Shown: positions 8,723-55,833 of the stretch, piece after piece
Numbering within the stretch: position 1 is the stretch's first letter
Layout: the number at the start of each line of letters is the position of its first letter
From: an uncultured Bacteroidales bacterium
GTDB lineage: Bacteria > Bacteroidota > Bacteroidia > Bacteroidales > GCA-2748055
NCBI GenBank assembly: GCA_963771005.1
Contig: CAVYRO010000003.1
Coordinates: 868,657 to 932,656 of the forward strand
Reading direction: 5' to 3'
DNA: 64,000 nucleotides
Notes under the pieces: generated by a model
What the model was told of the DNA's origin: nothing
Seen by the model: the letters and a program-made list of their open reading frames with translations, nothing else
Databases searched by the model: none
Program-made: the position numbers and the translations under genes

Positions 8723-10514
8723 ATGAGGATGCCTTCTTTAAAGAAAGATTTTGCCGGGAGATCTGCGGGTACCATAGCAATAGCTTTGATTTTCATTATC
8801 TCATTCATCTTTTTGTACGGATTCCATGATCACCTGTTTTTTTACCAGGAAAACCAGTCATTATTCCTGTTTTCAGGTGATTATCTTCTCGGGTTTACCG
8901 GCAAGCCGGGAGGGATCCTCTTGTATGCCGGCAATTTCTTCACGCAGGGCTACTTCAATGCAATATACGGTTCATTGCTATTATCTGCCGTAATTTCAAC
9001 CTTTGGATTTATACTTTTAAAAATAAATAAAAAGCTTTTCAGGGAAGGTTCTTCCTCCGTACTGCTCACCGTTATTCCCACCTGCCTCCTTCTTTTATTG
9101 CACCTGAACTTTAACTGGCCACTGAGCCATGACCTGGGATTTCTATTGACCGCTGTTTATTTCTACCGGTTGTCAGGTTCTGTCAACCTGACTGGCCGGA
9201 TATTACGTTTTGGCCGGCTTCCCAGCTTTTTATTACCTGGCGGGGGCTTTCGCATGGATCTTTATGGGGATGTATATCATCTTTAGCATCGAAAATGACC
9301 GGAAGCTCCTCCGGTATTCCTACCCGGCGCTTATACTTCTCGCCATTGTCACCTATACTGTTTTCAGGGAATTCATTTTTCTTCAGCCCGACAGCGTCCT
9401 CCTTCTCTCGCCTTTCTCGTTCAGGGATCCTCTGGCGCACATGGTGATTTTTTATCTGCTTTGTGCCGTAGTCATTTCCTTGCCGGTGCTCACAAGGGTT
9501 CTGTCAATAAGTGGAACGAAAGGAAAGTGGATGCGGCTGATTATGCCTTCCTCAATACCAGTGATGTTCCTCATTACTGTCATCCTCCTTGTTATTTGGA
9601 ATGATACAAAGATTGCAAAACTTTTCCGGCTGGAGAAATCCGTATACGAACGTGACTGGGATGCAGTGATCAACGACCAGGAGAAGTACCGCCTGAAAAA
9701 TTTAGTTGCAGAATATTATTATAACCTTGCCCTCGCAGAGAAGGGAGAGCTATGTGACAGGATGTTCCGGTGCCGCCAGGATTTCGGACCTGCCTCCCTG
9801 ATTATTCCCTGGGATTCAAAAATGGGAGCCAACAATATTGACAGGGGTGTTTACTTTTTTTACACAGCCGGACTGATCAATGAAGCCCATCGCTGGGCTT
9901 ATGAGTCAATGGTTGGAAGAGGTTTCCGGCCTGAAAACCTGAAGATGCTGATCAAGACGGATCTTATCAACGGGCATTATACCATGGCTAAAAAATACCT
10001 GGGAATCCTGAAGCAGACGCTGCATTACAGAAGCTGGGCTAAAAAATACGAGAGATTATTGAACCATCCCGGCCTGATCAGCGCTGATCAGGAACTTGGT
10101 GGAAAAATGAAGATCAAACCTGTTAAAGATTTTCAGATAAGCATCCGGAACCCGCAAACCAACCTGCAATTGCTGCTGGATTCCAATCCGTACAATAAGA
10201 CGGCTTTTGAATACCTGATGGCCTGGTACATGCTGGAGAAAAATATTACGACACTGGGCGATGAAGCGGGACGCATGAGAAAGCTCTCATATCCCGGGAT
10301 CCCGCGTCATATCGAAGAGGCTCTCATTATGTACAATATCGGAGCCGGGATGATGCCCGATCTCGGGAGGCTGAAGATCAGCCAGGAGTCTGTAAAACGC
10401 TTCCGTAAATATGAACTTTTCGCAGATCCTGCCCTGGGATTTTTAACAAAAGCCGGTAAAACCATTCCTGCGGAAACCAGGGAAACATTCTGGTATTACT
10501 TTGATTCAAAATGA
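8723..10514 (+). pseudogene. Large polytopic membrane protein with a C-terminal helical-repeat domain (DUF6057-like, from memory), split by a frameshift near 9185-9200
   Basis: ORFs 8723..9286 and 9210..10514 overlap in different frames. Both sides of the junction are hydrophobic TM segments (..FYRLSGSVNL / LAGYYVLAGFPAFYYLAGAFAW..). The second frame is open from 9192. The gene starts 45 bp downstream of the PD40 gene. Confidence 0.5.
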
Positions 10515-10545
10515 GTCCCTGGGAGGGGGCGAATGCCAACCGGAT

Positions 10546-10836
10546 CTATGACCGCAGGTACTCCTTAAGCGTATCAACATATTCTTCAAACTTCTTTTTT
10601 CCAAGGGTTGTCATCCGGCAGACGGTCCGCGGATAATTATCTTTAAAATGTTTATCCACCTCTATATATCCCGCGTCTTTCAACTTATTGATCTGAACGC
10701 TTAAATTCCCCGCTGTTGAGCCGGTCTTCTCTCTGATGAAAGTGAAATCGGCCGATTCTGTGTTCATCAGGATGCTGACGACGGCCAGCCTGAGCTGGGA
10801 ATGCAGGACCGGGTCGAGTGGTTTAAAGGGTTTCAT
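10546..10836 (-). CDS. Winged-helix transcriptional regulator (small, HTH_34/PadR-like)
   Basis: This 96-aa protein contains LDPVLHSQLRLAVVSILMN...FTFIREKTGSTAGNLSVQINKLKDAGYIEV. It overlaps the stop of the upstream membrane-protein gene, an operon-like arrangement. Confidence 0.7.
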   Translation of the reverse strand: MKPFKPLDPVLHSQLRLAVVSILMNTESADFTFIREKTGSTAGNLSVQINKLKDAGYIEVDKHFKDNYPRTVCRMTTLGKKKFEEYVDTLKEYLRS

Positions 10837-11409
10837 GCTCCGCTCTCCTTTTCAGCAGGTAACCCGGAACCAGGTAACCCCCAATCACGGCTGCAGCCAT
10901 AAAAAGAAGTTCATATGAATTCCCTGCAAACCGGGCCGCAATAGCCAGAAGCCAGAACATTACAGCACCGATGATCAGGGGCCTGAATTTTACGATGATC
11001 CCGGAAATAAAAGTCGGGATCCCGGCAAGCATCATGATGAACGGAGTTACATTGGCAAGATTGTCGTTAAGTAGTATGAAAAGAACGATGGCGGCAAAGA
11101 TAAAGGCCATCCATGTCCACATGTACAACCTGTCAGCATAAGTTGAAGCGGTGGATTTCCTCCCCTTCACAAAACCATACACCAGGGAGACAATGACACC
11201 CGGCATGGTGAGAAACCATACATAGTACGGGTGGGTATAGTCCGTAAACCGGTACAGCGCATAAGATGAAAGGCTGCAAAATACAATAAGCCATCCCCAG
11301 AAAAGAAGGTGAAAGCTTCCATGCCTGATATTGGCTTTCGTTTTACTGATCATCTCCGTGATGATGCGGATGCTTTCGGCTCCCGTGAGATCCTGTTCCT
11401 GTGTTTTCA
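10823..11409 (-). CDS. Hypothetical multi-pass membrane protein, co-transcribed with the winged-helix regulator
   Basis: The likely start is MKTQEQDLTG at 11409; the ORF-track start at 11479 adds an implausible leader. The protein has about 5 hydrophobic helices. Confidence 0.5.
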
Positions 11410-11547
11410 TTTCCGTATATATTTGTTTTTTAAAACATAAATAATATCCAAATATAAAGTAGTTTGAAATGTAAACCAAATAATTTAGAAATAGTTCATG
11501 TCCTTACAGAACTTTTCTTAATTTTATTCAAATCAATCCAAACCCTA

Positions 11548-12464
11548 ATGCACACCAGGTTCAGTATTTGTTTCCTGGGCATTTTCATGCTTAATGCCTG
11601 CAGTGACATGCCAAAGACTCGAAGAAAAGCAGATCCGGTTTCGAAATATAAACTTGCCATGGTCCAGATGGATGTAAGGGGAGGGGATCCGGTTCATAAT
11701 CTGGCTGCAGCCTCAGAAAGGATCAGGGAGGCAGCCGGGAACGGGGCACGCATAGCCCTTCTTCCTGAGATGACCGATTTCGGATGGTGTCATTCCTCGG
11801 CAAAGGAAGAGGCCGGACCCGTGCCTGGCGGTGATTCCTTTGAGGCGCTGAGCCGGGCAGCACGGGAAAATAATATATATGTCTGTGCGGGAATCGCCGA
11901 GAAAGACGATGACAGCCTGTATAACACAGCCGTTATCATCGGCCCCCGGGGAGATCTCCTGGCCAAACACCGTAAGCTAAATGAATTGGATTTTGCACAC
12001 GGTCTTTACAGCCAGGGTGATATGCTGAACGTAGCGCATACGGAGCTCGGTACCCTCGGCTTGCTGATCTGTGCCGATGCAAATGCCGACGGGCTTACCC
12101 TTTCCAAATCCCTATGTTACATGGGCGCGGACATCATCCTTTCACCCTGTGCCTGGGCCGTACCCCCGGATATGATAATGTGGCCTCTCCTTATGGCGAC
12201 ACCTGGCGCAATGCCTACGGACCCATAAGCAGGATGTTCGACGTCTGGTTCGTGGGTGTGAGCAATGTCGGGAAGGTGGAAGACGGGGCATGGAACGGCT
12301 GGGATTGCATCGGCTGTTCACTTGCCTACGCGCCCGGTGGGAAAGAGGTGGTACAGGCTCCTTATGGGGTATCAGCCGACACCATTATCTACATCGACGT
12401 AGATCTGCACAAACGTCCCGCAAAGGGAACCAAATGGGGGGAATATATAAGGGATCACCAATGA
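11548..12464 (+). pseudogene. Carbon-nitrogen hydrolase (nitrilase superfamily) lipoprotein, frameshifted in a C5 run at 12163-12167
   Basis: The Glu-Lys-Cys triad context is LLPEM, HRKLN and LLICAD. ORF 11464..12228 reads ..ILSPCAWAVPP and then loses homology. ORF 12114..12464 continues GYDNVASPYGDTWRNAYGPISRMFDVWFVGVSN.. in another frame. The likely start is MHTRFSICFLGIFMLNAC. Confidence 0.75.
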
Positions 12465-12548
12465 TGATTGAATCGTTATCCCTGACAGAGTTCAGAAATC
12501 CTGTCAGGGATAACGATTCACTTATCGGGTTCATACTCCGCTCAAAGC

Positions 12549-13090: not shown

Positions 13091-14184
13091 ATGGGACTTA
13101 AAACATCTGTTCATCTGATTTTTTTTCAAACGACGGGAAAATTGTGCAATTTGCTGAATAAAGTCTGCAGGTTGAAAAAATATGCACCTATAGCGCTTTT
13201 AATCATTTTGAGCTGGGCTGTCCTGTTTTTTATTTACAATTACAGGAATACTGCTTCGCATTACGGAATGCTTATCCCTGGGTTCATGACAGCGGTCGTA
13301 TTGATAAATGCATGGCTGTTCAACTATATTCTTATCCCGGGATACTACTTCAGACGGAAATATATTCCCTTTATTTTCTTCACCCTCTCGGCTGTTATTC
13401 TCAGCACCTGGCTGCAGATGCTTTTTGTGTTCGGACTATACATGAGGCTGAGATTTGAGTTGAACGCCGTTACACCGCGATTACAGGATATTATGGTCAT
13501 CATCTCCAGTACCTGGCTGATCGTTCTCGGGAGCATTGCTATAAGCAAACTTCCGTCCTGGCAGACAATGCAAGGAAACAGGAAGTACTAACCCGGGAGA
13601 AGTATGAAGCGGAGCTCCGGTTGCTTAAATCACAGATCAATCCCCATTTCCTGTTCAATACTCTGAACAGTATATATGTGTTGGCTAAGAAGAAGGCGGA
13701 GGAAACCCCGGAAATGGTCCTCAGACTTTCGCAGATCCTCGATTTCCTACTTTATGAGACCGGTTCTTCACAGGTTGAGATCATCCGGGAAATAGAATTT
13801 ATACGGGATTATATTGAGCTTGAAAAGCTGAGATACGGTAAAAAACTGGAAGTAAGTGTTCAGGTCGATATCCGTGATCCGCAGCGAAAGATTGAGCCGA
13901 TGATCTTCATCCCCCTTGTGGAAAATGCTTTTAAGCATGGGGTGAAAGGGGAGCGAAGGAAAGCCATTGTGCACATTGAGATTTCGGACCGGGATGGGAT
14001 CCGTTTTCACATCCGGAATTCAAAACCCGTAAGCGGGGTACCTGCATCGAAGGGAGGCATTGGGTTAAAGAATCTCCAGAGCCGTCTTGAAAAGATCTAC
14101 GGCGAGGGTTTCCGGATCCGCACAGATGATGCTCCCGGCCTTTACACTGTCGACCTGGAGGTTGTAAAGCCCCAATCCCCTTGA
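13091..14184 (+). pseudogene. LytS-type sensor histidine kinase (His_kinase PF06580 type), frameshifted near 13555-13572
   Basis: The N-terminal TM domain is in ORF 13091..13591. ORF 13621..14184 carries LKSQINPHFLFNTLNSIYVLA and IPLVENAFKHG. The second frame reads back through ..ADNARKQEVLTREKYEAELRLLKSQ, the usual coiled linker, so the two ORFs form one gene. Confidence 0.8.
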
Positions 14185-14246
14185 TATTACTGGGAAGCAA
14201 TTTCATTTGCAGCAAAGAGAAAAATCACTTCATAAAAACGTTGGCA

Positions 14247-14966
14247 ATGCCTTATACATGTATGATCATCGATGATGAACCGCTGGCGATTGAAGCCCTT
14301 GTTGATCACATCACCCGGCTTGACGATTTCACGATCATTGCCAGGTGCAGTGATGCGGTAGAGGCCATACCGCTCGTGAAGAGCGGTAAGCCCGACCTGA
14401 TCTTCCTGGATATTGAAATGCCTGAGCTCAGCGGGCTGGATTTCATCAGGTCGGTTCACAATCCTCCGCGGATCATTCTGACCACAGCATACAGGGATTA
14501 TGCGCCGGAAGCTTTTGACCTTGATGTGGTGGATTACCTGTTGAAACCGGTAAGTTTCCCGCGTTTTCTCAGAGCTGTCAACCGGTTCTATGATTCCTTA
14601 GGATCCTCAAATAAGGATACTGGAAATGTACAGGTTACTGGTGCCGATTACATAAATGTTTACGCTGATAAAAAAACACATAAACTGAAGCAGGAAGAGA
14701 TCCTGTATCTCGAGAGTGTGGGAGATTATGTGGCAATTCATCTCCATAACAAAAAGATACTCACCAGGGAAGGCATATCATCCCTTGAGAAAAAACTTCC
14801 CCGAGAATTATTCATCCGTATCCATAGGTCATTTATCATTTCCCTGGGACATATCGAAAGTTTTGCCAGTTCCGAGGTGGAAATTTCCGGAAAGATACTT
14901 CCGGTGAGCCGGAAATACAGGGATGCTGTATATCGAGTCCTGAATACCGGGAAAAGTAGACTCTAA
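14247..14966 (+). CDS. LytR/AlgR-family response regulator (receiver plus LytTR DNA-binding domain)
   Basis: The receiver domain shows MPYTCMIIDDEPLAIEAL and PDLIFLDIEMPELSG. The LytTR region shows ILYLESVGDYVAIHL...IRIHRSFII. The gene lies directly downstream of the LytS-type kinase. Confidence 0.9.
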   Translation: MPYTCMIIDDEPLAIEALVDHITRLDDFTIIARCSDAVEAIPLVKSGKPDLIFLDIEMPELSGLDFIRSVHNPPRIILTTAYRDYAPEAFDLDVVDYLLKPVSFPRFLRAVNRFYDSLGSSNKDTGNVQVTGADYINVYADKKTHKLKQEEILYLESVGDYVAIHLHNKKILTREGISSLEKKLPRELFIRIHRSFIISLGHIESFASSEVEISGKILPVSRKYRDAVYRVLNTGKSRL

Positions 14967-15063: not shown

Positions 15064-15913
15064 GAATTTGTTGAGTTGTTGAGTTGTTGAGTTGTTGATT
15101 GAAGAGATTCTACGTAGTACTGAATTTGTTGAGTTGTTGAGTTGTTGAGTTGTTGATTGAAGAGATTCTACGTAGTACTGAATTTGTTGAGTTGTTGAGT
15201 TGTTGAGTTGTTGATTGAAGAGATTCTACGTAGTACTGAATTTGTTGAGTTGTTGAGTTGTTGAGTTGTTGATTGAAGAGATTCTACGTAGTACTGAATT
15301 TGTTGAGTTGTTGAGTTGTTGAGTTGTTGATTGAAGAGATTCTACGTAGTACTGAATTTGTTGAGTTGTTGAGTTGTTGAGTTGTTGATTGAAGAGATTC
15401 TACGTAGTACTGAATTTGTTGAGTTGTTGAGTTGTTGAGTTGTTGATTGAAGAGATTCTACGTAGTACTGAATTTGTTGAGTTGTTGAGTTGTTGAGTTG
15501 TTGATTGAAGAGATTCTACGTAGTACTGAATTTGTTGAGTTGTTGAGTTGTTGAGTTGTTGATTGAAGAGATTCTACGTAGTACTGAATTTGTTGAGTTG
15601 TTGAGTTGTTGAGTTGTTGATTGAAGAGATTCTACGTAGTACTGAATTTGTTGAGTTGTTGAGTTGTTGAGTTGTTGATTGAAGAGATTCTACGTAGTAC
15701 TGAATTTGTTGAGTTGTTGAGTTGTTGAGTTGTTGATTGAAGAGATTCTTACGTAGTCCTGAATTTGTTGAGTTGTTGATTTGTTGATTGAAGAGATCCT
15801 TACGTAGTCCTGAATTTGTTGAGTTGTTGATTTGTTGATTGAAGAGATTCTTACGTAGTCCTGAATTTGCTGAGTTGTTGATTTGTTGATTGAAGAGATT
15901 CTCACGTGGTCCT
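15064..15913. repeat. 58-bp minisatellite: 11 identical copies (15064-15701) plus 4 variant copies of 59, 51, 51 and 51 bp
   Basis: The unit is GAATTT(GTTGAGTT)3GTTGATTGAAGAGATTCTACGTAGTACT. Unit starts fall at 15064, 15122, 15180 ... 15644, a constant 58-bp phase visible as a 2-nt shift per 60-nt line. Later units change to ..CTTACGTAGTCCT and replace one GTTGAGTT with GTTGATTT. Confidence 0.95.
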
Positions 15914-16299
15914 GAATTTGTTAAGGCTGCGCTCACCGAGCGGGACCCTGACTTGAAATGAATTATGGTTCGGCTTCCCTCAACATTTCGGTAATCTTTG
16001 CATTGAAAAGTCATCATATTATAATCTGGTGAAGTCATACCTTCGTTTAAGCGCATAGTTTGGGCTTCTTCCTTTGTAATACGTCTTAGTATCAACTGGG
16101 ATCCACCCCCACCGTCGACGCCGACCGCCCTTAATGGGATTCACCCCCCAAATCTCAGCGTCCCCTTTTTGACTTTTTGATGAAAAGTTATCAACACTAC
16201 AGATTATCAGTACGTTGGATAACCCCGAACTCATTGTTTTGGTGATTTGGTGAAGTGGAAGAGGAACGCGGATTTGACGGAAAAATACGAATCCCGGAA

Positions 16300-19514: not shown

Positions 19515-19692
19515 TGAAGAATTTGGAGTACTGTTTGAGATTGTTTGAGATTGTTTGAGATGGTTTGAAAGAAGAGGAACGCGGATTTGACGGATTTTGA
19601 CGGATTCCGGTAGCTATCGGAACGGATTTTGGATAGTTGACTCTTCATTCACCAAATCACCAAATCACCAAATATTCTTCATCCGCGTTCTA
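19515..19692. repeat. Mosaic intergenic repeat element (10-mer run, D module with hairpin, 8-mer run)
   Basis: The order is (TTGTTTGAGA)x3 plus TGGTTTGAAA, then GAAGAGGAACGCGGATTTGACGGATTTTGACGGA. Next comes the palindromic TTCCGGTAGCTATCGGAA, then (TCACCAAA)x3. The element closes with ATCCGCGTTC, the inverted complement of GAACGCGGAT. Confidence 0.85.
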
Positions 19693-21849
19693 TTCCCCTC
19701 TATAAACCTTCACTTCAATACCCGAAGGCCTCACCCTATCATGGTAAATGCGTTGGGTGGCGCGAATAAAATCCCCTTCACCGCAATGATAAATATCGGT
19801 AAACTGCTGTGGATTCCGGTCCACGAGCGGGAACCATGAATTCTGGACCTGTATCATGATCCTGTGTCCTTTCTGAAAACAATGCGCAATATCCGGCATC
19901 TCAAAGGATACCCGGGTCACCTCTCCCGGAGTAAAAGCTTCCGGTTTTTCATAGCTATTCCTGAATTTTCCGCGCATAACATCGCCCCTGATCAACATCT
20001 CGTAACCGCCCGAAGGGACCATGCCGTTTTCACCCGGCTTCATTCTCAGGTTCAGGGGGAAAGACGTCGATGAGCTTAACTACATAGTCTGCATCTGTCC
20101 CTGAAGTGCTAACATAAAGATCCACGTTGAGCGGACCCGTTAGCGTTAGGGATTTCGTGAGAGGCTGTGATTCATAGACCAATACGTCCGGCCTGCTGGA
20201 AGCAAATCTCTGGTCTGCAGTCATATAATCTGCTGTTCTTTTAAAATGGACGCCGGCAACATAAGGAACGGGATTTTCCGGATCAGAGACATATTCGTCA
20301 TAGCTTTCGGCAGAGTGGGGCGGTGTGAAGGAAAGACTTCCTCCGGGTTGAAGGTATAGAACAGAATCCGTCGTATTCCTGGGAGGCCATTCTGAGAAAG
20401 AATGCCAGTCGTTTGTCCCGCTTATAAAGACGGAAGCTTCCGGGAGATCCATTTTTCCTTCATCCTTCATGATAGAAGTTGAAGAATTTCATTTGCAGCT
20501 GGTTGAAATAATCCGTTGTATTCTCACCCCAGGAAACGTCGCCCAATTGCTCACCGGCACTCTTAGCCCACTGGTGATGAGACCATGGCCCCATTATGAG
20601 CCGGTTACTTTTCCCGGAGTTCTGGGACTCAATGGTTTTATAAGTCTGCAAAGTCCCAAACAAGTCCTCAGCATCATACCAGCCCCCGACAACAAGCACC
20701 GCAGGACGGAGATCACTGAGGTACCGCAGGGGATTTCTGGCTTTCCAGAATTCATCATAGACAGGATGATCCATCATCTCCGACCAGAACCGTACCGTAT
20801 CGCCGAAATATTTTTTCTCAGCGTTGCGGATGGGGCCCAGATCCAGGAAAAACCGGTAATTATCGCTGCTTTTGAACTCATATGTTCCAGGCCATTCCCG
20901 GATAAGACCGTGCCGGGGAATGCCAAAGGCCGAATAAAAGGAGAAGGCATCCGAAAGAAAGAAGGCCCCATGATGGTGCCAGTCGTCGCCCATGAACCAG
21001 TCGGTGACGGGAGCCTGTGGAGAGACGGCCTTCACTGCGGGATGTGCATCCGGCAGTGCCATGGTAGAGTAGAAACCCGGATAGGATACCCCCATGATTC
21101 CAACCCTGCCGTTATTATTTTTTACATTTTTTACCAGCCAGTCTACAGTGTCCCAGGTATCGCTGCTCTCATCCGTTTCCTTCCTCTTTTTCAGTTCGAT
21201 ATAAGGTCTGACATCCACGAAGGTTCCTTCACTCATGAACCTTCCTCGCACATCCTGCAAAACGATGATATATCCCTCCTCCAGGAAATGGGAATATTCG
21301 GAAAGCATACTCGAAAAGCCCGTTTCCGATGTTTCGATACGGTAAGGTGTACGGGTAAGGATTATGGGATAGTAATTCAAATTGCTTTTGGGGGAATAGA
21401 TGGAAGTATACAGACGGACTCCGTCTCTCATGGTGATGTAGACGTCCTTTTTGTCATACTGTGTCCTGATGAAAGTCGTATCCTTCCAGTCGACTGTAGA
21501 ATCCTGCCTTGTAAAATCGACTTTATATTTTACCCCGGACTGTGTCATACTACCGGTGATCAGGGCCGCTTTTTCTTCATACCGGCCCCTGTAGGTCAGC
21601 CCGCCCTGCCGCCAGAAAAAGTAAAACTGATTTCCGGTGAGGGAGATGCTGTCAAGTGAGATAGCATACGCATTCTGGTCCGGGCTGTCGAAATCACCTG
21701 AGAGCTTGTAGCCATCTGCCCGGATATGGAGGTTCAGGTGAAGTTCGGGACCCTTCAGGAGGGCATTCCAGTCGCCGGTTATGTCCTGCGCTGCGGCCGG
21801 GAATAGAATGAAGGCCAATAGAACCAGGAATATGAATGTTCTTTTTCAT
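19690..21849 (-). pseudogene. CocE/NonD-family (S15, X-Pro dipeptidyl-peptidase-like) hydrolase, interrupted by three frameshifts
   Basis: Three consecutive ORFs (20460..21818, 20030..20470, 19690..20043) together form one S15 protein, with nucleophile context GVSYPG and C-terminal domain MLIRGDVMRGKFRNS. The junctions are at about 20466 (FFNFY / KDEGK) and in a G5/C5 run at 20055-20059. The signal peptide MK(K)RTFIFLVLLAFILFPAAAQ is restored only if the T5/A5 run at 21842-21846 is shortened by 1 nt, starting from the ATG at 21849. Confidence 0.8.
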
Positions 21850-22152: not shown

Positions 22153-23563
22153 ATGAAAACCACCAATCAACTCCTGGCATATTTGTCCATCGGGCTGGCC
22201 GCGACGGCAGGAAGCTGCACAACGGTTGACAGGGAACCCGGCAAACCCAATATTGTCATCATCTTCCTCGATGATTCCGGATGGTCTGATTTCAATCCCT
22301 TTACAAAAAACGATTACCCAACACCCAATGTCGACCGGCTGGCTTCGGAGGGAACCCGTTTCCAACAGTTTTACGTACCGCAGGCCATCTGTTCCGCCTC
22401 GAGGGCGGCCCTTCTGAGCGGGTGTTATCCCGGGCATACGGGCGTCACCGGAGCTCACGGTCCAGGCGCGCTGGGTCTCGATCCGAAATTCGCCACCCTC
22501 GGTGAGGTGCTGCAGAAGGACGGGTATGCAACGGCAGTCTTCGGGAAATGGCATATCGGCGATCAACCGCAAACGCATCCCTGGAACCGCGGTTTCGATG
22601 AATCGTGCGGACTGATGTACTCGAACGATATGTGGCGGTTTCATCCTGAGAACCCGGAGAAATGGGGAGAACATCCGCTGCAATTCTGGGAGAACGATTC
22701 TGTGAGTATTGCGGATGTGGATTCGGCCGACCAGAAAATGCTTACTACCTGGTATACGGAACATGCGGTCAACTTCATCAACAGGCATAAAGACGGACCT
22801 TTTTTCCTGTATGTTCCCCACAATATGCCCCATGTGCCGATTTTCTGCAGCGATAAGTTTGAAGGCAAATCCGGGAAGGGAAGATATGCCGATGTGATCA
22901 TGGAACTTGACTGGTCGGTGGGTGAGATTACAAAAGCCCTGCGGGAAAACGGGCTGGAGAAGAATACAATGGTGGTCCTCACCTCCGATAATGGCCCCTG
23001 GATCGTTTATGGCAACCATGCCGGCAGGACGCCGTTCCGGGAAGCAAAGGGAACTTCATTCGACGGTGGGACACGTTCCGCATGTATCGTAAAATTTCCC
23101 GGGAACGTCCCTGCTGGAAAAGTCTCAGACCAGGCTTTCTGCACCATCGATCTTCATGCCGACGATCTGTCACATTACGGGAGCTGAACTGCCATCCAAT
23201 CCCATCGACGGGATGGATGTGACAGACCTCGTCATGTCGAAGAAAGGAGCTGTAAATCCTCATGATTACTATGCTTTTTCAACCGGAAAGCAATTCGAGG
23301 CCGTGATGAGTGGCGACGGGCACTGGAAGCTTCATCTTCCGCACGATTACCGTACTCTTGGGATAGCCGGCAAAGACGGGATGCCAGGCCGTTACCGGCA
23401 GGATGAGATCGGATTGTCGCTCTTCGATATGGTCAATGACCCCAATGAAACGGAAAATGTGATAGGTAAGTACCCGGAGATCGCTGAAAAGCTGGAAGGG
23501 TACGCCCGGAAACACAGGGAGATGTATTATGCAATGGAGGAGAAAGAAGAAGCGCTTCAGTAA
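22153..23563 (+). pseudogene. Formylglycine-type sulfatase, frameshifted near 23150-23156
   Basis: Conserved sulfatase motifs are NIVIIFLDDSGW, CSASRAALLSGCYP (C-x-A-x-R) and FGKWHIG. ORF 22153..23187 reads ..AFCTIDL and ORF 23156..23563 continues MPTICHITGAELP in another frame. The usual sulfatase junction is TIDLMPTI, which implies one extra C in CTTCATGCC. Confidence 0.9.
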
Positions 23564-23583: not shown

Positions 23584-23820
23584 GGACGCGGTTTAATTGT
23601 ATGAAATGGTTTGAAATGGTTTGAAATGGTTTGAAATGGTTTGAAATGGTTTGAGGTTGTTTGAACTCAATTCACCAAATAGTCTTCATCCGTGATTATC
23701 CGCACAAATCCGTCAAATCCGTGTTCTTCTTCCTCTTCCTCCCCAACTTCACCAAATCACCAGATCACCAAATTCTTCGGGGAGTTTCACCACAGATTTC
23801 ACAGATTATCACAGATTAGC
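23584..23820. repeat. Mosaic intergenic repeat element between convergent genes
   Basis: The order is (ATGGTTTGAA)x5, then TCACCAAAT, then ATCCGTGATTATCCGCACAAATCCGTCAAATCCGTGTTC (D module, reverse orientation). It finishes with TCACCAAATCACCAGATCACCAAA and TTCACCACAGATTTCACAGATTATCACAGATTA. Confidence 0.85.
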
Positions 23821-23845: not shown

Positions 23846-25499
23846 CTAAGGGTTGGCGCTGCCTGTTTCCGGGTAAAAAGGTAGATGGCTCACCCGGTTA
23901 TACCGGAATGGTTTAAATACTTCTATTAATTCGTTTTCCTTACAAGTGAATGTATCCAGTGGTTCCCCGAGTAAATTTTTTATAGTTTCTTCCGCTATAT
24001 CATCCTTTATAATAAAGGTAAATTCCCGAGAGGTTTTTTTTGAACCATCTTCAACGTAATACCAGTTTTCATTCATGACATGATAATAAGGCTTAAGATC
24101 CGTATATACGCTGAAAATACGCAGTCCCTCTTTTGAGAACATGCTGATCAGTTTGCCATCCCAGTAGTTTCCCACCCCATTTTTCAATGAATGTTCCCTC
24201 GCGAGTCGATCCATACAGGCTACCTTTTCCGGATAGTAATGCAGCAATTCATTCATTCCGGCCTTTATATTTTCTTTCCGGAATTCATGATAAACGAAGA
24301 CAGTTCCCGAAAGCAGAAGTACTGCAGGAACAATGAACATTACCGTTCGTCTCCCGGGCAATACTTCGGATAACTTATAAAGCAGGTAGCCGAAACTGAA
24401 TATTCCGAAGTAAAGACTATATACATTATATCTCAATATATCCCATCCTGAGTAACTTCCGTTAATGATGGGCATTACCACCGTTGAAACAGTTATAACC
24501 ACAAATAGAAGCAGGTATATCAGTTCAGCCATCGGGACATCCTCATTTTTGAAAAATGAGATCAATTTTCGCACAAGAAATGTGGAATGAAGGATGAGAC
24601 TCAACAGGAAAAGCAGGTCGATGAGTGCCCGGAAATCGTATTGTGAAAGGTAGAAAGAATGCTGTTCTGAAAACATTGCAAGTGAAGGGACGATCTGGTC
24701 GAAGCTGAAAATTCTCCACGATAATCCCATGATCCGGATCGGGGAATTGAATCTCAGGAGGGTGAATAAGGGAAGGGCTACACCTATAGACAAGACATTT
24801 GTTGCCAATATCTTATAAAGTCCGGCCCGGTAGGGCGTATTCCTGAAGAGTAAAATGCCCAGGGCAAATACCGGTATGGAAAAAATGGCCATGAAAAGCC
24901 GGTCGTTTATGATGGCTACAACAGAAATTATGAACAAAATCACAAGAGCAGAGAACCGGTTCTTTCTGAGAAACCGGATCAGGAAAATGAGAGCGGCAAG
25001 GGTCATCAGGAATGCGCTCAGATGATAACCGATGCTTACGATATAAAATGTGTAACTGAAATCATGATTCACAATTCCAGCCAGCAGGAAGAGGGACATG
25101 AGCATTATCCCGGTTGTGAGAAACCTTGCATCGAGATTCTCAAAAAAACTCCTGTATACCATACATCAGAAGCAACATCAACAGGATAAATTCCAGGAAG
25201 CTGTATGTGAGCATAGCGGGGATGAACGAATTAAAAAAGATTTGGATGATGAAATACATGATCATATCGGGGAAAATATTCGGGGCCCCGTTCAGGTGCC
25301 ATCCGGCAAAGCTGTTTCCATCGATGAAAAGATCATGGTAAATTGACGGAACATACAGCGTGTCGGAATTGAAATAAACCGGGATCTGATCCTCCCTGAT
25401 CGTTGCAAAAAGAATGATGCAAAGAAGAATATTAATCATAAAGGCAACCGGTAAAATAATTCCCGGACCGGATCGTGGTAGCAGGCTGCGATAGGACAT
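23846..25499 (-). pseudogene. Large hypothetical polytopic membrane protein (about 550 aa), frameshifted near 25150-25160
   Basis: ORFs 25140..25499 and 23846..25162 overlap by 23 nt in different frames. Both are strongly hydrophobic and contiguous (..LLLMYGIQEFF / ..YRSFFENLDARFLTTGIML..). Confidence 0.5.
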
Positions 25500-26794: not shown

Positions 26795-26960
26795 CTAGAA
26801 TCCCCTGAAAATCCCGAAGAGGAGACTGATAACAAAAAGCACGAGAAAAATGTAGAAAAGTATCTTCGCAATGGAAGCCGCACCTGCAGCAATTCCGCCA
26901 AAACCGAAAAGAGCTGCGATCAATGCAATAACTAAGAATATAATAACTAATCGTAACATA
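26795..26960 (-). pseudogene. DUF1328 (UPF0391/YtjA-like) small membrane protein, with a 1-nt insertion near 26930-26936
   Basis: Minus-strand reading from the ATG at 26958-26960 gives MLRLVIII. After removing one A in CTTAGTT it continues [46 protein letters not shown], with the stop at 26795-26797. The interval is 166 nt, which is not a multiple of 3. It falls below the ORF-track length cutoff. Confidence 0.65.
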
Positions 26961-39439: not shown

Positions 39440-40166
39440 ATGAACCTATCCGGAAATAAAATTCTGATCACCGGGGGAGCCTCAGGCATTGGCCTGGGCC
39501 TGGCGGAAAAATTCATTGGCGAGGGAAATTCGGTCATAATTTGCGGTCGGCGCGAGCCGGCGCTTGATGAGGCATCGGCGTTGTTTCCACCGGTAATTAC
39601 GCGCAAATGTGACCTGTTGGTGCAGGCCGAGCGCGAGGCATTGTTCAACTGGATATCCGATGAGCACAGCGATGTCAATGTCCTGGTTAATAATGCAGGT
39701 ATACAGCAACGGATGGGGATCCATGATGAAAATTTTTTCCCGCGGGCAAAAGAGGAAATACGGATTAATGTTGAAGCCCAGGTCCATTTGATCTCTCTTT
39801 TCCTGGGGTTGAAGTCGTTGGATACGATCCTCAATGTGACTTCCGGGCTCGCATTTGTTCCCATGACCCATGCTGCAGTTTACTCTGCCACAAAAGCCTT
39901 CTTCCATTCCTTTCACGGTTTCCCTCAGGGAGATCGTCAGGCAGGATAACATAGAGGTGATCGAGATCATTCCCCCGGCAGTGAATACGGATCTCGGGGG
40001 GAAGGGCGTGCATAGCAATGCCACCCCTGTCGGTGAATTTGCCGAAGCAGTTCTAAGTCAGCTCAGGCAGGGGAAGACAGAGATCACTTATGGTTTCACG
40101 GAAGGCATGCCGGCGTCTTCTCCTGATGATTTGGAGAAAATATTCAGGAGGATGAACGGAATTTAG
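39440..40166 (+). pseudogene. SDR-family oxidoreductase, frameshifted at the T3 run 39911-39913
   Basis: The cofactor motif is ILITGGASGIGLGLA and the active-site motif is YSATKAF. ORF 39440..39949 reads ..ATKAFFHSF and ORF 39870..40166 continues TVSLREIVRQDNIEVIEIIPPAVNTDLGG in another frame. Confidence 0.85.
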
Positions 40167-40545: not shown

Positions 40546-41875
40546 TTAATGTCCTTTCTTTCCCATAAGCCCAATAACATTCGCGGTCATCGCCTCAATG
40601 CCCGTTTCAATCGCTTTCCGGTAATCGGCCTGCAAAACGGGTGAATGAAGCGGGGCAGGGGATTCACCTTTACTCTTTAGACCGGCCATTAGCTCCGGAC
40701 GTGTGACGCCGAGCCATACCAGGCATACCGGGATATTTTCAGGGGTTCTTCCATATTTCCCGAAATCTTCCGCGCCCATAACAGGTTTAACGGCAAACGA
40801 TATTTTCGCTTCCGAGAATGCCTCCGGAATATAAACGGATATCCCCCACAAGCGCCTCATCGTTCATTACGGGCGGAGTTTCGACGGTATCGATCTTTAC
40901 CTCGGGGAGGCGGTCTTCGGGCATACCGGCCGTGAGGGCGGCGCCCCGGCATATTCTTTCGATGGCGCTGATGGTCTTTTTGATCACCTCATCGTTATAA
41001 TAGCGCAAGGTGAGTTGCATTTTCACCTCATCGGGAATGATATTCGGACGCGTGCCGCCATGGATCGAGCCCACCGTAACGACCACCGGTTCGAGCGGGC
41101 TGATCTCGCGGCTTGCGATGGTTTGCAGGTCAAGTACGATCCGGGAGGAGATCACGATGGGATCGATACATTTTTCCGGGTAGGCACCATGTCCGCCTTT
41201 GCCATATACGATGATCTCCGCTGACTTAACCCCGGCAAGGGCAGGCCCGGTGACCAGGCCGATCTTCCCGGATTCCACATCCGGGTTGATGTGATAGGCC
41301 AGGGCATAATCCGGTACGGGAAATTTCTGAAATAATCCTGCGTCAATGGCCGCATCGGCGCCGGCGGAGATCTCTTCCCCCTCCTGTGCAATGACCATTA
41401 GGGTGCCTTTCCAGAGACCCTTCAGGGTTACGAGGGCATGCACCGTCCCCGCGAGGACCGACATGTGGATATCGTGGCCGCAGGCATGCATCACATAAAC
41501 TTCCTCGCCATTATCGTTTTTAGCCTGCTTTGTACTGGCGAAATCAAGGCCGGTTTTTTCCTTTACAGGAAGTGCATCCAGGTCGCATCGCAGCATGATC
41601 ACGGGGCCTTTGCCGTTCCTGAAAATCCCGACAACGTTATTGCCGCCGAAATTACGCGTAACTTCGAGGCCTGCACTCTCAAATTCCCCGGCCATCCGTT
41701 CGGCAGTCTGAAATTCCTGTAACGAGAGCTCGGGATTCCGGTGGATCTGCTTGCAAAGTTCATAGGCTTTGGGACTCTCAGTCTTAGCCGTAGCTATGAT
41801 CTTTTCGTTTACTTGTGAGGCAGCGTTCATTTGAAGAACGACGGACAATAAAAAAATGAGTTCAGGTATTTTCAT
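40546..41875 (-). pseudogene. M20-family amidohydrolase/peptidase (hippurate-hydrolase-like), frameshifted near 40820-40835
   Basis: The metal-binding motif is HACGHDIHM. ORF 40787..41875 reads ..PPVMNDEALVGDIRLY and ORF 40546..40860 continues IPEAFSEAKISFAVKPVMGAEDFGKY in another frame. The N-terminus is a signal peptide. Confidence 0.85.
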
Positions 41876-42005: not shown

Positions 42006-42137
42006 GGGCGTAACCTTACCATGGGCATAACCTTACCATGGGCGTAACCTAACCACAGGCATAACCTACCACGGGCGTTACCTAACCACGGGCGTAACCT
42101 TACCACGGGCGTAACCTTACCACGGGCGTAACCGTGG
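42006..42137. repeat. 17-bp tandem repeat, about 7.8 copies
   Basis: The unit GGGCGTAACCTTACCAC and variants start at 42006, 42023, 42040, 42058, 42073, 42090, 42107 and 42124. The array is preceded at 41950-41985 by TCAACAAATCAAAAAATTCTTCAGGTG, the 8-mer/junction motif of the main family. Confidence 0.9.
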
Positions 42138-42627
42138 CTAATACAATGAAACCCCTCCGGGGTGCCGGGAACACGATCATCATATATTATGCGCGTGACC
42201 TTACCTCGGGAGTAACCATGAGTAATACAATTAAACCGCCTCCGGGGTGCCGGGAACACGATCATCGTATACAATGGACGTTTTGGTGGGTAATACAATT
42301 AAATCGCCTCCGGGGTGCCGGGAACACGATTATCATATATTATGCGCGTGACCTTACCACGGGAGTAACCATGAGTAATACAATTAAACCGCCTCCAGGG
42401 TGCCGGGACCACGATCATCGTATACAATGGACGTTATGGTGGGTAATACAATTAAATCGCCTCCGGAGTGCTGGGACACGATCATCGTATATTATGTGCG
42501 TGACCTTATCACGGGCGTAACCATGAGTAATACAATTAAACCACCTCCGGGGTGCCGGGACCATGATCATCGTATACAATGGACGTTATGGTGGGTAATA
42601 CAATTAAATCACCTCCTGTGGCAGATC
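42138..42627. repeat. 152-153-bp tandem repeat, about 3.2 copies, each made of two related half-units
   Basis: Both half-units begin TAATACAATTAAA(C/T)CGCCTCCGGGGTGCCGGGAACACGAT. Half H1 ends CAATGGACGTT(T/A)TGGTGGG, and half H2 ends TTATGCGCGTGACCTTACCACGGGAGTAACCATGAG. Phase marks are at 42221, 42374 and 42526. Confidence 0.9.
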
Positions 42628-45789: not shown

Positions 45790-46334
45790 TTAGCTGGTTT
45801 CACCGGTCCCGGCCAGTTTCTGCACCGTTCTCCAGTTCCGGGTAGTGGCGGTAACATGGAGTCTGGATTCGAAAAAGGTATTATTTAGTTTAGTCCTGCC
45901 ATACCCGTTTGGGCAATGGAGGAATATTTCCCTTCCCATAATCCGGAATTCATCAGGAAGAAAATTCCTTTCTTCCAGGGATTTCACATTTTTTTCTTCC
46001 GGGATGTCAGAAAGGAAGGTAACATGGAGTTTTTCGGGGGAAGCATTCCCGTCCTGCAGAAAAGGGTTGTCTTCAAGTATTTTATGCAGAGCGGCATTAC
46101 TGCGGATAATGAACAGGGACATTTACCCCGAACCGGCTCCTGATAAGATCTCCGATCCGCCGGCTTGCTTTTCCGGGATCTTCACGCGGAAGTGAAAATG
46201 ATGTTCCCGCTCTGGATATACGTTCTGACATTGCCGAATCCTTCCTCTTCCATGGCGGTTCTGAGTCCGGCCATATTGACGGGATTCTTTCCGCCTACGT
46301 TAATTCCCCTGAGAATGGCAGCAAATGTTTCCAT
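45790..46334 (-). pseudogene. DUF1697-family protein, interrupted by two frameshifts (about 46183-46190 and 46112-46120)
   Basis: The ATG at 46332-46334 gives METFAAILRGINVGGKNPVNMAGLRTAMEEEGFGNVRTYIQSGNIIFTSA*. A second frame gives REDPGKASRRIGDLIRSRFGVNVPV. The third frame (ORF 45790..46122) gives IIRSNAALHKILEDNPF...GRTKLNNTFFESRLHVTATTRNWRTV. Confidence 0.75.
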
Positions 46335-46363: not shown

Positions 46364-48176
46364 CTATTCCGCATAAAGATACGGCTCACACCAGTCGGCA
46401 TGGTCATAATGGTTCCCGTTTCCGCCGTCGGTGACTATAAGGGTGAGTTCGTTCACGCCCTCCAGGGATATATCAACAAACCGCGCCTCATCCTCAGCCG
46501 TCATAAGTCCGCTCCTGAAGAGTTCCTTTTCGTCACCCTTTACAATAAATTCCACGCTACCGAAAGTGTTGAACCGGGTATATGCATCGACACCTACCCA
46601 TGAAGTGAACCGTTTATAATGCCCTCCCGGAAAAAAATGAAGTTCGGAAACGGCATGGACACCAAATCCGGTTTCAAAATTGCGATCTTTTATTTGCAAC
46701 GGTGTTCCCTGAAGAGCCCGGTTTAGATGGGGGTTTCCAAAACCCTGGATCCAGGAAGCGGGATGGATCTTTGAGAGAAGGATATTGGCAGGCTGATCCC
46801 AGGATACAATCACCGGTTGTGAATATTCCGATTTCATACCTTCAAGAGTGGCTGATTCCAACCGGCATGTATCGATTGTTCCTGCAAGTTGCAGGGGCAG
46901 AGTACAGGAAAGGGTTGTTGTAGTGAACTGCCATTCCCCATTGATCAAAATATGATACATACCGGCGCCTTTTACCATTTTCCAGGAGAGTGTCTTCAGG
47001 CTGTCAGTCGTTCCATCGGAACATGTAAGGTCAGGCCGCGGAAGCGGTTCTTCAACAGGATCGAAGATATTCATGTTCCACCTGTCCAGGTTTTCAATGA
47101 TAAAACTTCCGTCCTTACGAATAAAAAAGGGTTGCCAGAAAAGACGGGAATTTTCAAGTTTGTCAGCATCCCATATGTCTGCCATGAAAATGAAAGAACC
47201 TTCAGGTTTGCCGGGGGCGGGAAGGACAAATGTGCTTTGCGAACCGAAGGTTATCCCCGCTTCCGGACCCCGGCAGGGATTCTCATGTGACGTCCAGGGC
47301 CCGAGAATATGATCCGCGGTATGGTATGAGGCGGCATTTGCAGCCCACCCGGTGAGTCCGGAAGTGATCATATAATATCGTCCCTTATATTTGAAAGGGG
47401 CAGGAGCCTCCCTTTTCTGATTTATGATCGCGCGTGCCCAGGTTATTCCTTCCGTGAGCGGCCGGGCCACATCGGTATAATCATCTGAGAGTTTTACGAT
47501 ATAGATGCTGCTGTTATTTTCGGATGAATAGATCACATACCCGCTTCCGTCATCGTCTGCAAAAAGATTCATATCCCGGAAAGTGTTGCCCCGGTCTTTC
47601 TCACCGATCTTTTGAAGGCGTTCGGAATCTTCCGGCGATAGTGCTTCGTTGCCGCCATCCATACTGTGATAGCCATAGTCGAATTTCACCGGCCGGAAAG
47701 ATCTTATAAATTCGAAGGGACCCGTGGGAGAACCGGATACAGCCACGCCTGCTTCCGACATTGTATACCCGTCGGCATCGAGATGCATCCACATCACGTA
47801 TTTACCGGTTTTAGAATTATAAATCACTTTCGGCCTTTCGAGCACACCGGTGTTCCTGGTTTTTTCCGGGGTACTCCCGGTGGCCAGCGCTGTACCTTCA
47901 TATTTCCAGTGATAAAGGTCAGTCGATGAATAGCAGCATACCCCTGTCCTGTTCCCATGTCCGAGCCTTTGGTCCTGGCCGTACATGTAATAAATATCAC
48001 CTGCCTTGAGGATCCCGCAGGCATGAGCTTCTATGGGAACACTGTCTGTATCGTACCAGACTTCGCCGGGGGTGAAGAAATCCCGGTCATTGCCCGTTTC
48101 GGCTGTCTTTTGATTACAGGATGAGAGCGGTTATGAGAGAGAACAGAAGGATGAGTGGGATGAAGATCTTATTCAT
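46364..48176 (-). pseudogene. GH43-family glycoside hydrolase lipoprotein with a C-terminal NPCBM-like carbohydrate-binding module, frameshifted in the signal peptide region (about 48113-48125)
   Basis: GH43-like blocks are YSSTDLYHWKYEG, ERPKVIYNSKTGKYVMWMH, DMNLFADDDGSGYVIYS and REAPAPFKYKGRYYMITSG. The C-terminus is TDGGNGNHYDHADWCEPYLY. The ATG at 48176 gives MNKIFIPLILLFSLITALIL*, and the next frame continues SCNQKTAETGNDRDFFTPGEVWYD.. directly into the long ORF. Confidence 0.8.
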
Positions 48177-48390
48177 AGTTTATTTATTCAGGATTACGGA
48201 ACCCCATTTCGTTAATGGAACCGGGAAATACCGGCATATCGCTTATCAAATGGCATGTAAATTTATAAATAATTGTAAACCCGGTAAAGAAGTCCTTATC
48301 CCAAATCCGCATTCAATGCCTCTTTTATTTAATTTTATCATTGAGAAGCGCCTTGATGCGCGCCCCTGCGACAAAATTAAATAATCAGCA

Positions 48391-49021
48391 TCAATACCTG
48401 GTTACCTGCTTTCGTGCTATCAGCAGGAAGAGAGGGTAATTTTTCTTCTCTTGTCCGGAATCTTTTTCGATCGAGTAGAAATCTGTAAAGACCAGGGTCG
48501 TGAACCCGTGAAGCGAGAGGAGCCGATCTTAGCTGTTCCTGTTCAAAGCCGTTATGACCGTCGAAATCAGGCATGTGGGCATGGAAACTTCCGTCTTCCT
48601 TCTCCAGGTCGCCTATACAAAGGATTCCGCCCTCGACCAGCAAGGAATTAAAACGGTGGAAGAGGATATCGAGATCCCGTATATGATGAAGGGTCATCAG
48701 GGTATAAATGATATCGAATTTCTCATTCAACCCTCTTTTCTCAAGGTCAATTTTCAGGGGTCTGAAATGATCGAGATGATTCTCTTTAATCCTATTTTTC
48801 AGAACCTTCAGCATTCCTGCGGATGAATCGGCGAGGGTGATGCGTTCAAACTGTTCGCGCAGGAAATAACTAAGTAATCCCGTTCCGCAGCCGAATTCAA
48901 AGGCATCACTGAGATTCCTGCCCTCAAGGAAGTTCCTGATATGATCTGCAAATACTGCAGCCCTCTCCCGCTTCTTTGGATCGTCATCCCAATCTGCGGC
49001 TCTTTCATCAAAAGATGTCAT
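48391..49021 (-). pseudogene. Class I SAM-dependent methyltransferase, frameshifted near 48535
   Basis: Motif I is AFEFGCGTGLL. After GFEQEQL the ORF-track frame becomes non-homologous. The shifted frame reads RLLSLHGFTTLVFTDFYSIEKDSGQEKKNYPLFLLIARKQVTRY*, with the stop at 48391-48393. Confidence 0.8.
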
Positions 49022-51755: not shown

Positions 51756-51881
51756 TTCGTTGGTTGATAGGTTGGGTAATGAAAAGGCAAGTTACGATCA
51801 ACGGGAACAGTTCCGGAAAAAATGAGACGGAAAATTGACGGAATGGGGAGCTATTTGGAACGGGTAAAAATTGGGGGAAGG

Positions 51882-52476
51882 AATGTAGAACACGGATCCG
51901 GAAGAATTTGTTGATTTGTTGATTTGTTGATTTGTTGAATGGAGTTGAAACCACGTGAAACCATCTTTCTTAATCTGTGATAATCTGTGCAATCTGTGGT
52001 TAAACTCCCCGAGGAATTTGGTGATTTGTTGATTTGTTGATTTGTTGAATGGAGTTGAAACCACGTGAAACCATCTTTCTTAATCTGTGATAATCTGTGC
52101 AATCTGTGGTTAAACTCCCCGAGGAATTTGGTGATTTGTTGATTTGTTGATTTGTTGAATGGAGTTGAAACCACGTGAAACCATCTTTCTTAATCTGTGA
52201 TAATCTGTGCAATCTGTGGTTAAACTCCCCGAGGAATTTGGTGATTTGTTGATTTGTTGATTTGTTGAATGGAGTTGAAACCACGTGAAACCATCTTTCT
52301 TAATCTGTGATAATCTGTGCAATCTGTGGTTAAACTCCCCGAGGAATTTGGTGATTTGTTGATTTGTTGATTTGTTGAATGGAGTTGAAACAACCTGAAA
52401 CAATCCGAAAGAAGAGGGAACACGGATTTGACGGATTCCGATAGCCATATAGCCATCGGAATTCGTGTTCTACATT
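51882..52476. repeat. Higher-order array: 4 full copies plus 1 partial copy of a 110-bp unit, the reverse complement of the 35722-36258 unit type, bounded by imperfect 19-bp inverted repeats
   Basis: GAATTTG phase marks fall at 51904, 52014, 52124, 52234 and 52344, exactly 110 bp apart, and copies 2-4 are identical. The left flank is AATGTAGAACACGGATCCG (51882-51900). The reverse complement of the right flank (52458-52476) is AATGTAGAACACGAATTCC, matching at 16 of 19 positions with the first 13 perfect. Confidence 0.9.
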
Positions 52477-52486
52477 AATCTTCCCT

Positions 52487-52927: not shown

Positions 52928-52938
52928 GCTTTCGTTTT

Positions 52939-54585: not shown

Positions 54586-54846
54586 CTTATTATTTTTTGA
54601 ATTATGGAATATAAAATTACTATTATTTACCTAAAAACAATGGGATTGCAGGAAAGTTCCGGTCCTCCATTGTAGGGATAGAGGAATGGTTCGCCATCAT
54701 CTACCGGCAATTTCGACCCGGATTGTCGACGGTTGATAAAATTGGGGAAAAGTTCTTTCGAATTAAATTGAAATGCGCTCCGGATTTTAATATCATTACA
54801 AGGATTTGAATATGCGGGGGTTACCGGGTTTTAAATCATTCTATCC

Positions 54847-55224
54847 ATGATCAGCAGTACATTTAATTCCAAACTTGGCATTCTTGAGGTTAAATATTCG
54901 GGAAGGCTTAATTATAGAGAACTAAAAAATTTTAGTGACAGTCTGATGAAAGACAAGAAGATCCCCCGGGAACTGAAGATCCTGACGGATGTTCGTGAGG
55001 GAGAGTACGATCTGAAAGGCAGGGATCTTCCGGAGATACCTGATGCCTCAAACAATATGGCCGGGGCCTTTACCTTTATCAAAGCAGCATTCATCCATAA
55101 CAGGCCCAGGGAAACCGCCCTCTCGCTTATCGCCGAAAAACGCAACACCATTCCAAATTATTTTCACAGGGTATTCTCAACTGAAGAGGCCGCCCTGAGC
55201 TGGTTACTCGGGAACATTCCCTGA
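54847..55224 (+). CDS. Hypothetical protein (125 aa)
   Basis: The ORF has coding-like composition but no recognised motif. Confidence 0.45.
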   Translation: MISSTFNSKLGILEVKYSGRLNYRELKNFSDSLMKDKKIPRELKILTDVREGEYDLKGRDLPEIPDASNNMAGAFTFIKAAFIHNRPRETALSLIAEKRNTIPNYFHRVFSTEEAALSWLLGNIP

Positions 55225-55481
55225 GTTATATCTAGAGCTTACAGATTCCAACGACAAGCTGTACCTGCGTTGAAAAATATTCACAGGTTAAAAACCCTTT
55301 AACAGCTTGAATTTGTTACAATTCCAGATGAATATCCATTCTTTTCCTGAAATATGCTAAACAACGTGGAAATCTGGCCCCAATATTCTGAAATTCAGGG
55401 GTTTTTTTGGCAAAATTCCGGATTTGTACATTTTTTGTATAAGCATTCTCAGTTTCATTAAAAAAGAAAGGGGGAACTATT

Positions 55482-55833
55482 ATGAAAGATCATTCGTTTA
55501 GATGGCAGGACTGGGTCACCCTTTTCGCGGGGATCTGGTTATTTATCAACCCATGGCTGTTTGGATATTACCGGATGGCTTATGCCTGGGACGCTTTTCT
55601 TTTTGGTGCCGTACTTTTCGTTTTTTCAATCTGGGCACTTAGTGACAAGCGGTTTCTGGGAAGAATGGGTCGACTTACTTATAGGAATCTGGGTATTTAT
55701 TTCGCCCTGGGTACTGGGCTTCAATACGAACAGGGGAGCCCTGTGGAACTTTCTTTTTGTAGGCTTTTTCACGATGGTTTTTGCCATCTGGAGCATTGCG
55801 GCTTACCCAAAGGTTTCAACAGCCCAGGCCTGA
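55482..55833 (+). pseudogene. SPW-repeat membrane protein, with a 1-nt insertion near 55656
   Basis: The first repeat (WQDWVTLFAGIWLFINPWLFG) is in ORF 55482..55928. The second repeat (WEEWVDLLIGIWVFISPWVLG) is in ORF 55561..55833 in another frame. The junction CGGTTTCTGGGAA joins cleanly if the C is removed. Confidence 0.7.

Follow-up and report, generated by a model that had tools for sequence, protein, structure and literature searches.

Single-base frame breaks clustered in an uncultured Bacteroidales genome probably reflect consensus errors of the assembly

Introduction

Recently host-restricted bacteria such as Mycobacterium leprae, Sodalis, and Shigella accumulate pseudogenes. Programmed frameshift and slippage sites, as in prfB, dnaX, and the IS3-family transposases, are conserved across orthologs and are characterized by defined slippery motifs. 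Insertions and deletions (indels) in the consensus of long-read assemblies lead to frameshift errors in gene calling (PMC9262707; PMC13087279; preprint 10.1101/2021.08.23.457338). Near-finished quality takes approximately 40-fold coverage, and soil data sets suffer more from the frameshift errors (PMC9262707, PMC13087279). The subject of this work is a 64,000-nucleotide stretch of an uncultured Bacteroidales genome, termed the window in the following (contig C3, positions 868657-932656), in which single-base changes of the reading frame divide 15 genes into adjacent open reading frames (ORFs). We infer, with a probability of roughly 85%, that these breaks are indel errors left in the consensus of a poorly polished long-read metagenome-assembled genome (MAG) and not mutations of the organism. 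In the organism itself, the genes are almost certainly unbroken.

The genome (G000) comprises 6.1 Mb in 10 contigs with 46% G+C and is 99% complete as judged by marker genes. The nearest genomes compared (G001, G003, G004, and G005) represent four species of the same genus, which are only 70-76% identical at the DNA level, yet are syntenic across the whole window.

Frame breaks in the window

All ORFs from the syntenic regions of the four relatives were aligned to the window with tblastn. A second line of evidence was the division of Pfam profile coordinates between adjacent pieces, complemented by solved amylase structures, paralog architecture, and the reading frames of signal peptides. The breaks were classed as insertion-type or deletion-type by the direction of the frame change. 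At a typical site, one ortholog aligns collinearly across two to three frames, and the gap in the query is 0-2 residues at most junctions. Taken together, 18 single-base frame changes are located in 15 of approximately 40-45 genes between window positions 8723 and 55833. Fifteen are insertion-type and three deletion-type, the latter in the nitrilase, the LytS kinase, and the amylase. The initial annotation had listed about 19 frameshifts in 16 of roughly 55 genes; the breaks themselves stand, with both the break count and the gene count coming out lower. It was also right that the genes carry neither in-frame stops nor deletions. No in-frame stop was found across the aligned window genes, apart from the wrong-frame overhang of one high-scoring segment pair, and no internal deletion was found in the window genes, so that the lesions are single-base indels only. 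Both flanks of the window (1-8700 and 55900-64000) are free of frame breaks, as had been stated. The affected stretch is not confined to the window and extends upstream as well.

The ortholog alignments bear directly on recoding, in which programmed ribosomal frameshifting or transcriptional slippage would restore the frame in vivo. A few sites do lie in short A or T runs, which is nothing specific to such a mechanism. At the break positions, the compared orthologs of the four relatives keep their frame, so the sites are not conserved as recoding signals would be, and recoding is effectively excluded. Furthermore, no slippery motif common to the sites was found, and the 15 affected genes are unrelated.

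A homopolymer of at least 4 bases is touched at 6-7 of the 18 window sites, making the earlier estimate of about half a generous one. The run-associated sites are C5 at 12163, A5 at 21842-21846, G5 at 20055, T7 at 25142, G4A5 at 32950, C4 at 37692, and G4 at 46126. The remaining sites have unremarkable contexts, for example GATCTTCATGCC or CGGTTTCTGG. These contexts are relevant for a scenario in which minority-strain indel polymorphisms, including homopolymer phase variation, were caught by a collapsed consensus while most cells carry unbroken genes. Clustering of the breaks in particular stretches would fit strain-variable regions, and the 7-base run at 25142-25148, close to the 5′ end of a gene for a membrane protein, has the context of a contingency locus. 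However, this is the single site out of 18 with a run long enough for phase variation. Measured against phase-variable contingency loci (a run of at least approximately 7 bases in the 5′ portion of a surface-protein gene), all other sites fall short, with runs of at most 5 or no run at all. Two thirds of the tightly placed sites lie outside of runs, and there is no reason why minority alleles should consist almost exclusively of insertions. Strain polymorphism is considered a very unlikely source of the breaks.

Distribution across the genome

For a genome-wide survey, 1623 ORFs from 1.25 Mb of G004 were used as references against the whole genome. In this survey, 41 frame changes split 29 of the 635 clear orthologs. 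Nine of the changes lie in the 30.4 kb of coding sequence that is orthologous to G004 within the window, compared to 32 in 738 kb elsewhere. This corresponds to 0.30 versus 0.043 changes per kb, a seven-fold difference (1.3 changes expected, Poisson P=1e-5). The breaks are clustered outside of the window, too, where seven genes carry at least two breaks, compared to 1.1 expected. The gene at C8:1354947-1358058 (1061 aa) has four breaks in 3 kb, and the one at C3:846041-848401 has four within 1.3 kb; both are still 63-72% identical to their ortholog or paralog. A paralog-based scan yielded approximately 106 candidate sites, some of them in protein-internal repeats (e.g. C3:544.7-545.4 kb), and serves as a lead only. 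At least eight of its sites directly upstream of the window (C3:841.8-867.4 kb) were verified by hand as further breaks. Downstream, 27 consecutive orthologs are intact up to C3:972 kb. The window region also belongs to the lowest 1-2% of the genome in long-ORF coverage (0.50 compared to a median of 0.77), a measure that is not specific for frameshifts.

When all sites are pooled, 50 frame changes divide into 42 of insertion type (84%) and eight of deletion type. A run of at least 4 bases is touched by 11 of the 33 tightly placed sites (random expectation 6.5), and the other two thirds lie outside of runs. A search for methylation-type motifs found no enriched 4-mer at the break sites after correction; GATC was noted by eye near three of them. 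The 50 frame changes contrast with no more than one or two credible in-frame stops genome-wide. The best and only convincing nonsense candidate among the 635 orthologs is a TGA at C8:1261819 with conserved flanks, at a position occupied by Arg in the G004 ortholog. The gene that carries it also has two frame changes.

The indels could also be real and stem from a recent, localised burst of mostly +1 insertions in patches of up to approximately 80 kb, for instance through error-prone repair synthesis that extends over long tracts. No mutational process of this kind has been described for Bacteroidota, and the burst is considered highly improbable.

Selective constraint and gene importance

The strongest biological alternative to consider is a genuine and very recent inactivation of genes, in which a region of approximately 80 kb and other patches would have lost selection in an early phase of reductive evolution. 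The deposited sequence does contain the breaks, and their frequency is lowest in the most conserved genes. The sampled long essential genes are intact, and the broken window genes are mostly accessory (glycoside hydrolases, a sulfatase, and regulators). All of this would be in line with gene decay.

The kinds of lesions speak against it. In recent bacterial pseudogenes, nonsense substitutions make up about a fifth to a third of the inactivations, and neutral substitutions are approximately tenfold commoner than indels. On these rates, 18 neutral indels in 47 kb should therefore be accompanied by several nonsense codons. The 50 indels are instead matched by at most one or two, and by no deletions. 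The insertion bias of 84%, with two thirds of the sites outside of homopolymers, is also unlike spontaneous slippage mutations.

The state of the broken genes adds to this. At residues that are invariant in at least three relatives, the genome differs in 8.0% of the positions in broken genes and in 9.9% in intact genes. Because lineage-specific changes are no commoner in the broken than in the intact genes, the broken genes have been under selection up to the present, although some of them carry three or four breaks. Several genes with 2-4 breaks keep an identity of 60-85% to their orthologs on both flanks. A central-metabolism gene is hit as well. The gene for the ATP-dependent phosphoenolpyruvate (PEP) carboxykinase, pckA, has its sole locus in the genome at C8:412714-414329 and is split mid-gene by one deletion-type change near C8:413214-413244, with halves that are 82-90% identical to the ortholog. 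An RlmL-like methyltransferase is also split. With 6.1 Mb, the genome exceeds all four same-genus relatives in size (3.9-5.7 Mb), and an independent sister assembly has the same kind of break in other genes. Gene inactivation is unlikely on these grounds, and the suggestion in the initial annotation of early gene decay following a recent lifestyle shift, for which nonsense mutations, deletions, and excess substitutions would be expected, is not borne out.

Sister assemblies

Over the same orthologous region, no break is found in G003 and G004, one in G005, seven in G001, and 10 in G000, and these affect different genes and positions. Because the sister assemblies differ in this way, the density of the breaks follows the assembly and not the gene or the lineage. 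The seven breaks of G001 fall within 40 kb of its contig C15 and are again mostly insertion-type; this assembly is just 80% complete though it has only 30 contigs. In G004 (contigs C4 and C7), 14 of 637 genes are split elsewhere.

Consensus errors as the favoured explanation

Consensus errors account for these observations as follows. The hot stretch of approximately 82 kb (C3, about 841.8-924.3 kb) would be a region of locally poor consensus quality, in which an extra or missing base would have survived polishing approximately once per 2.5-3 kb. The local cause is likely a low coverage or a co-assembled or collapsed strain variation in this stretch. The assembly is presumably based on long reads. 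Its tandem arrays are resolved in 10 contigs, and the nameable relatives are all uncultured Bacteroidales or Bacteroidota MAGs, several of which have contig names in nanopore style or typical for long-read pipelines. The contiguity, the resolved arrays, and a genus known from MAGs only fit a long-read metagenome assembly. An insufficiently polished assembly of this kind had already been put forward in the initial annotation, and it is favoured here by the pure indels, the conserved genes with multiple breaks, the lack of relaxed constraint, the split pckA, and the differences between sister assemblies.

Several observations weigh against consensus errors. The frame changes become rarer with conservation, amounting to 0.075, 0.059, and 0.024 per kb in the terciles of low, middle, and high identity. 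This trend would fit selection against real mutations; it can equally be explained by errors that are concentrated in strain-variable, lower-coverage, and less conserved regions. The genes for rpoB, ValS, IleS, MetS, LeuS, and the EF-Tu-family GTPases are intact, which is uninformative because only about one break is expected there at the background rate. The strong insertion bias and the weak link to homopolymers are unlike the classic nanopore signature of homopolymer deletions. Finally, no conspecific sequence was found in the databases searched. Among 5.8 billion proteins, the closest non-self match to the sulfatase is 84% identical; an exact but indel-tolerant pattern spanning the sulfatase site had no match in metagenome contigs, and a scan of genome contigs returned other species only.

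Individual broken genes

The three deletion-type breaks affect a hydrolase, a kinase, and an amylase. The carbon-nitrogen hydrolase of the nitrilase family (11464-12464, + strand) is broken at 12165-12171 at a C5 run (12163-12167). Its orthologs in G001, G003, and G004 go from frame 1 to frame 3 with a continuous query, and its first piece covers positions 1-171 of 256 in CN_hydrolase. The LytS-type sensor histidine kinase (13091-14184, +) changes frame within 13459-13591, probably at about 13540-13560. This is the least precisely placed site, as no ortholog was found. From its first residue onward, piece 2 matches positions 5-81 of 81 in His_kinase. The pieces of 166 aa and 187 aa agree in architecture with four paralogs of 337-363 aa, in which the kinase domain starts at residues 138-161. 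The LytTR regulator of the kinase is encoded directly downstream (14181-14966). In the GH13 alpha-amylase (37655-39120, +), the break is located at about 37690-37697 (C4 at 37692-37695), approximately 13 codons past the start. The ORF matches 24 solved amylases only from residue 31, which corresponds to chain residues 14-17, and the missing N terminus MPENGTMIQYFHAYTP is found in frame +2. The missing first strand, NGTMIQYF, is likewise out of frame with the ORF.

Two genes carry more than one insertion-type change. The S15 X-Pro dipeptidyl peptidase (19690-21849, − strand) has three, at 21842-21848 (an A5 directly behind the start codon), at 20463-20472 (without a run), and at 20042-20061 (with a G5 at 20055-20059). 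Its orthologs traverse frames −3, −1, and −2. Peptidase_S15 is whole in piece 1, and PepX_C begins in piece 2 (positions 3-121) and continues in piece 3 (positions 126-215). The signal peptide differs in frame from the gene body, with MKK in one frame and the remainder in the next. The DUF1697 protein (45790-46334, −) is broken twice, at approximately 46183-46194 and at approximately 46110-46129 (with a G4 at 46126-46129). Pfam positions 1-49 lie in frame −3, the middle in frame −1, and positions 75-137 in frame −2. The orthologs show a gap of 27-29 residues between the outer pieces, and both changes fall within 46110-46212.

The GH43 glycoside hydrolase with an NPCBM domain (46364-48176, −) is broken by an insertion-type change at 48116-48131 within its lipoprotein signal peptide. 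Here, MNKIFIPLILLFSLITALIL is read in one frame and SSCNQK continues in the next, so that the signal peptide is out of frame with the body; the orthologs (596-603 aa) align from residue 14 only.

All other broken genes contain one insertion-type change each. In the sulfatase (22153-23563, +), it is placed at 23153-23154 in the context GATCTTCATGCC, which has no homopolymer. The orthologs of four relatives are 82-84% identical before the junction and 66-70% after it with a query gap of 0, and the best non-self database matches are full-length proteins of 464-512 aa. A membrane protein without a Pfam family (23846-25499, −) is broken at 25143-25162 in the A7/T7 run (25142-25148), and homologs on G003:C12 and G001:C2 shift from frame −3 to −1 within 25143-25191. 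In the DUF6057-family membrane protein (8723-10514, +), the most likely position is 9189-9207 and no homopolymer of at least 4 is present. Piece 1 contains Pfam positions 8-137 and piece 2 contains positions 155-567 of 569, and the orthologs from G001 and G005 switch from frame +2 to +3 within 9163-9250. The RibD_C-domain reductase (32611-33163, +) is broken at 32951-32955 in G4A5 (32950-32958), and its Pfam profile is divided between piece 1 (positions 1-122) and piece 2 (positions 139-197 of 197); a G004 homolog (35-42% identical) shifts from frame 1 to 2.

The AraC-family regulator (33348-34179, +) is interrupted at 33725-33727 without a run of at least 4. Its orthologs shift from frame 3 to 1, and HTH_18 and HTH_AraC are found in piece 2. 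The short-chain dehydrogenase (39440-40166, +) is broken at 39912-39913 (T3). All four relatives shift from frame 2 to 3 with a query gap of 0, and adh_short positions 2-159 of 195 lie in piece 1. In the M20 peptidase (40546-41875, −), the site is located at 40791-40796 without a run of at least 4; the orthologs shift from frame −1 to −2, and positions 1-137 of 206 in Peptidase_M20 are in piece 1. The S-adenosylmethionine-dependent methyltransferase (48377-49021, −) is broken at 48528-48530, where there is no homopolymer. All four relatives shift from frame −1 to −2, and Methyltransf_12 and related domains lie in piece 1. The last break of the stretch is found in the SPW-repeat membrane protein (55482-55833, +) at 55654-55655 (T3). 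Each of the two frames contains one SPW repeat, and the orthologs from G003 and G005 (131-137 aa) shift from frame 3 to 1.

Two further candidates were dismissed. The DUF1328 small membrane protein (26798-26959, −), previously listed as broken at about 26933, is encoded by an intact ORF of 54 aa that spans the whole Pfam model (positions 1-39 of 39, E=2e-16). An apparent junction at 59539-59563 is not a break, as a separate small Cys-rich gene abuts its neighbour there. This ORF of approximately 55 aa (59396-59563, −) adjoins the upstream gene, has the motifs CPSC...CWC...CLCPEC, and is 75% identical in relatives.

Repeats in and around the window

Five intergenic tandem arrays are located in the affected stretch. 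They span 15064-15889 (58 nt × 14.5, 97% match), 31745-32267 (252 nt × 2.1), 35858-36257 (approximately 114-122 nt × 3.2), 42134-42616 (153 nt × 3.2), and 51904-52405 (110 nt × 4.6). Sub-repeats of the GTTGTTGA type are common to several of these arrays. In addition, an interspersed repeat of approximately 70-140 nt occurs at 16061-16201, 19534-19674, and 23591-23700, as well as at C3:779248-780208 and in many other places of the same genome. It has dozens of copies as well as tandem arrays genome-wide, and it is also found in G001, G003, G004, G005, and G016 (80-93% identity). The repeat looks like a family of MITE-like (miniature inverted-repeat transposable element) or REP-like (repetitive extragenic palindromic) elements.

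Consequences for annotation

Read as consensus errors, the frame breaks are no biological feature, and their use is that of an annotation warning for this genome. Mis-annotation as pseudogenes or fragments would affect about one third of the genes in the stretch and approximately 5% of those in the whole genome. Inferences of gene loss, of a lifestyle shift, or of metabolic gaps from this assembly are therefore unsafe. As an example of a false gap, the genome would seem to be without PEP carboxykinase. The same caution applies wherever another finding from this genome builds on broken genes. As the sister assemblies carry single-base breaks too, gene-loss inferences across the genus need care. 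Should reads confirm the indels as real, the patchy pattern of insertions would represent unusual biology.

Comparison with known systems

The closest likeness is to the indel errors of long-read MAGs. In both cases, single-base indels cut conserved genes into adjacent ORFs, and the density of the breaks varies with the assembly rather than with the lineage. A high contiguity with resolved repeats is likewise shared, as is a high completeness despite truncated proteins. The differences lie in type and distribution. Classic long-read errors are homopolymer deletions, whereas 84% of the changes found here are insertion-type and two thirds lie outside of runs of at least 4. The breaks are also strongly patchy, with a hot stretch of approximately 82 kb and single genes that carry four breaks.

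The accumulation of pseudogenes in host-restricted bacteria is similar in that a large share of a region's genes is interrupted and yet remains recognisable. Here, however, the lesions include no nonsense mutations, deletions, or insertion sequence (IS) insertions. Constraint shows no relaxation, no other genome of the genus sample is larger, and a central-metabolism gene is broken.

With programmed frameshifting, the window genes share the property that they are readable only via a one-base change of frame. In contrast to programmed sites, the orthologs are in-frame and the contexts of the breaks have no common motif.

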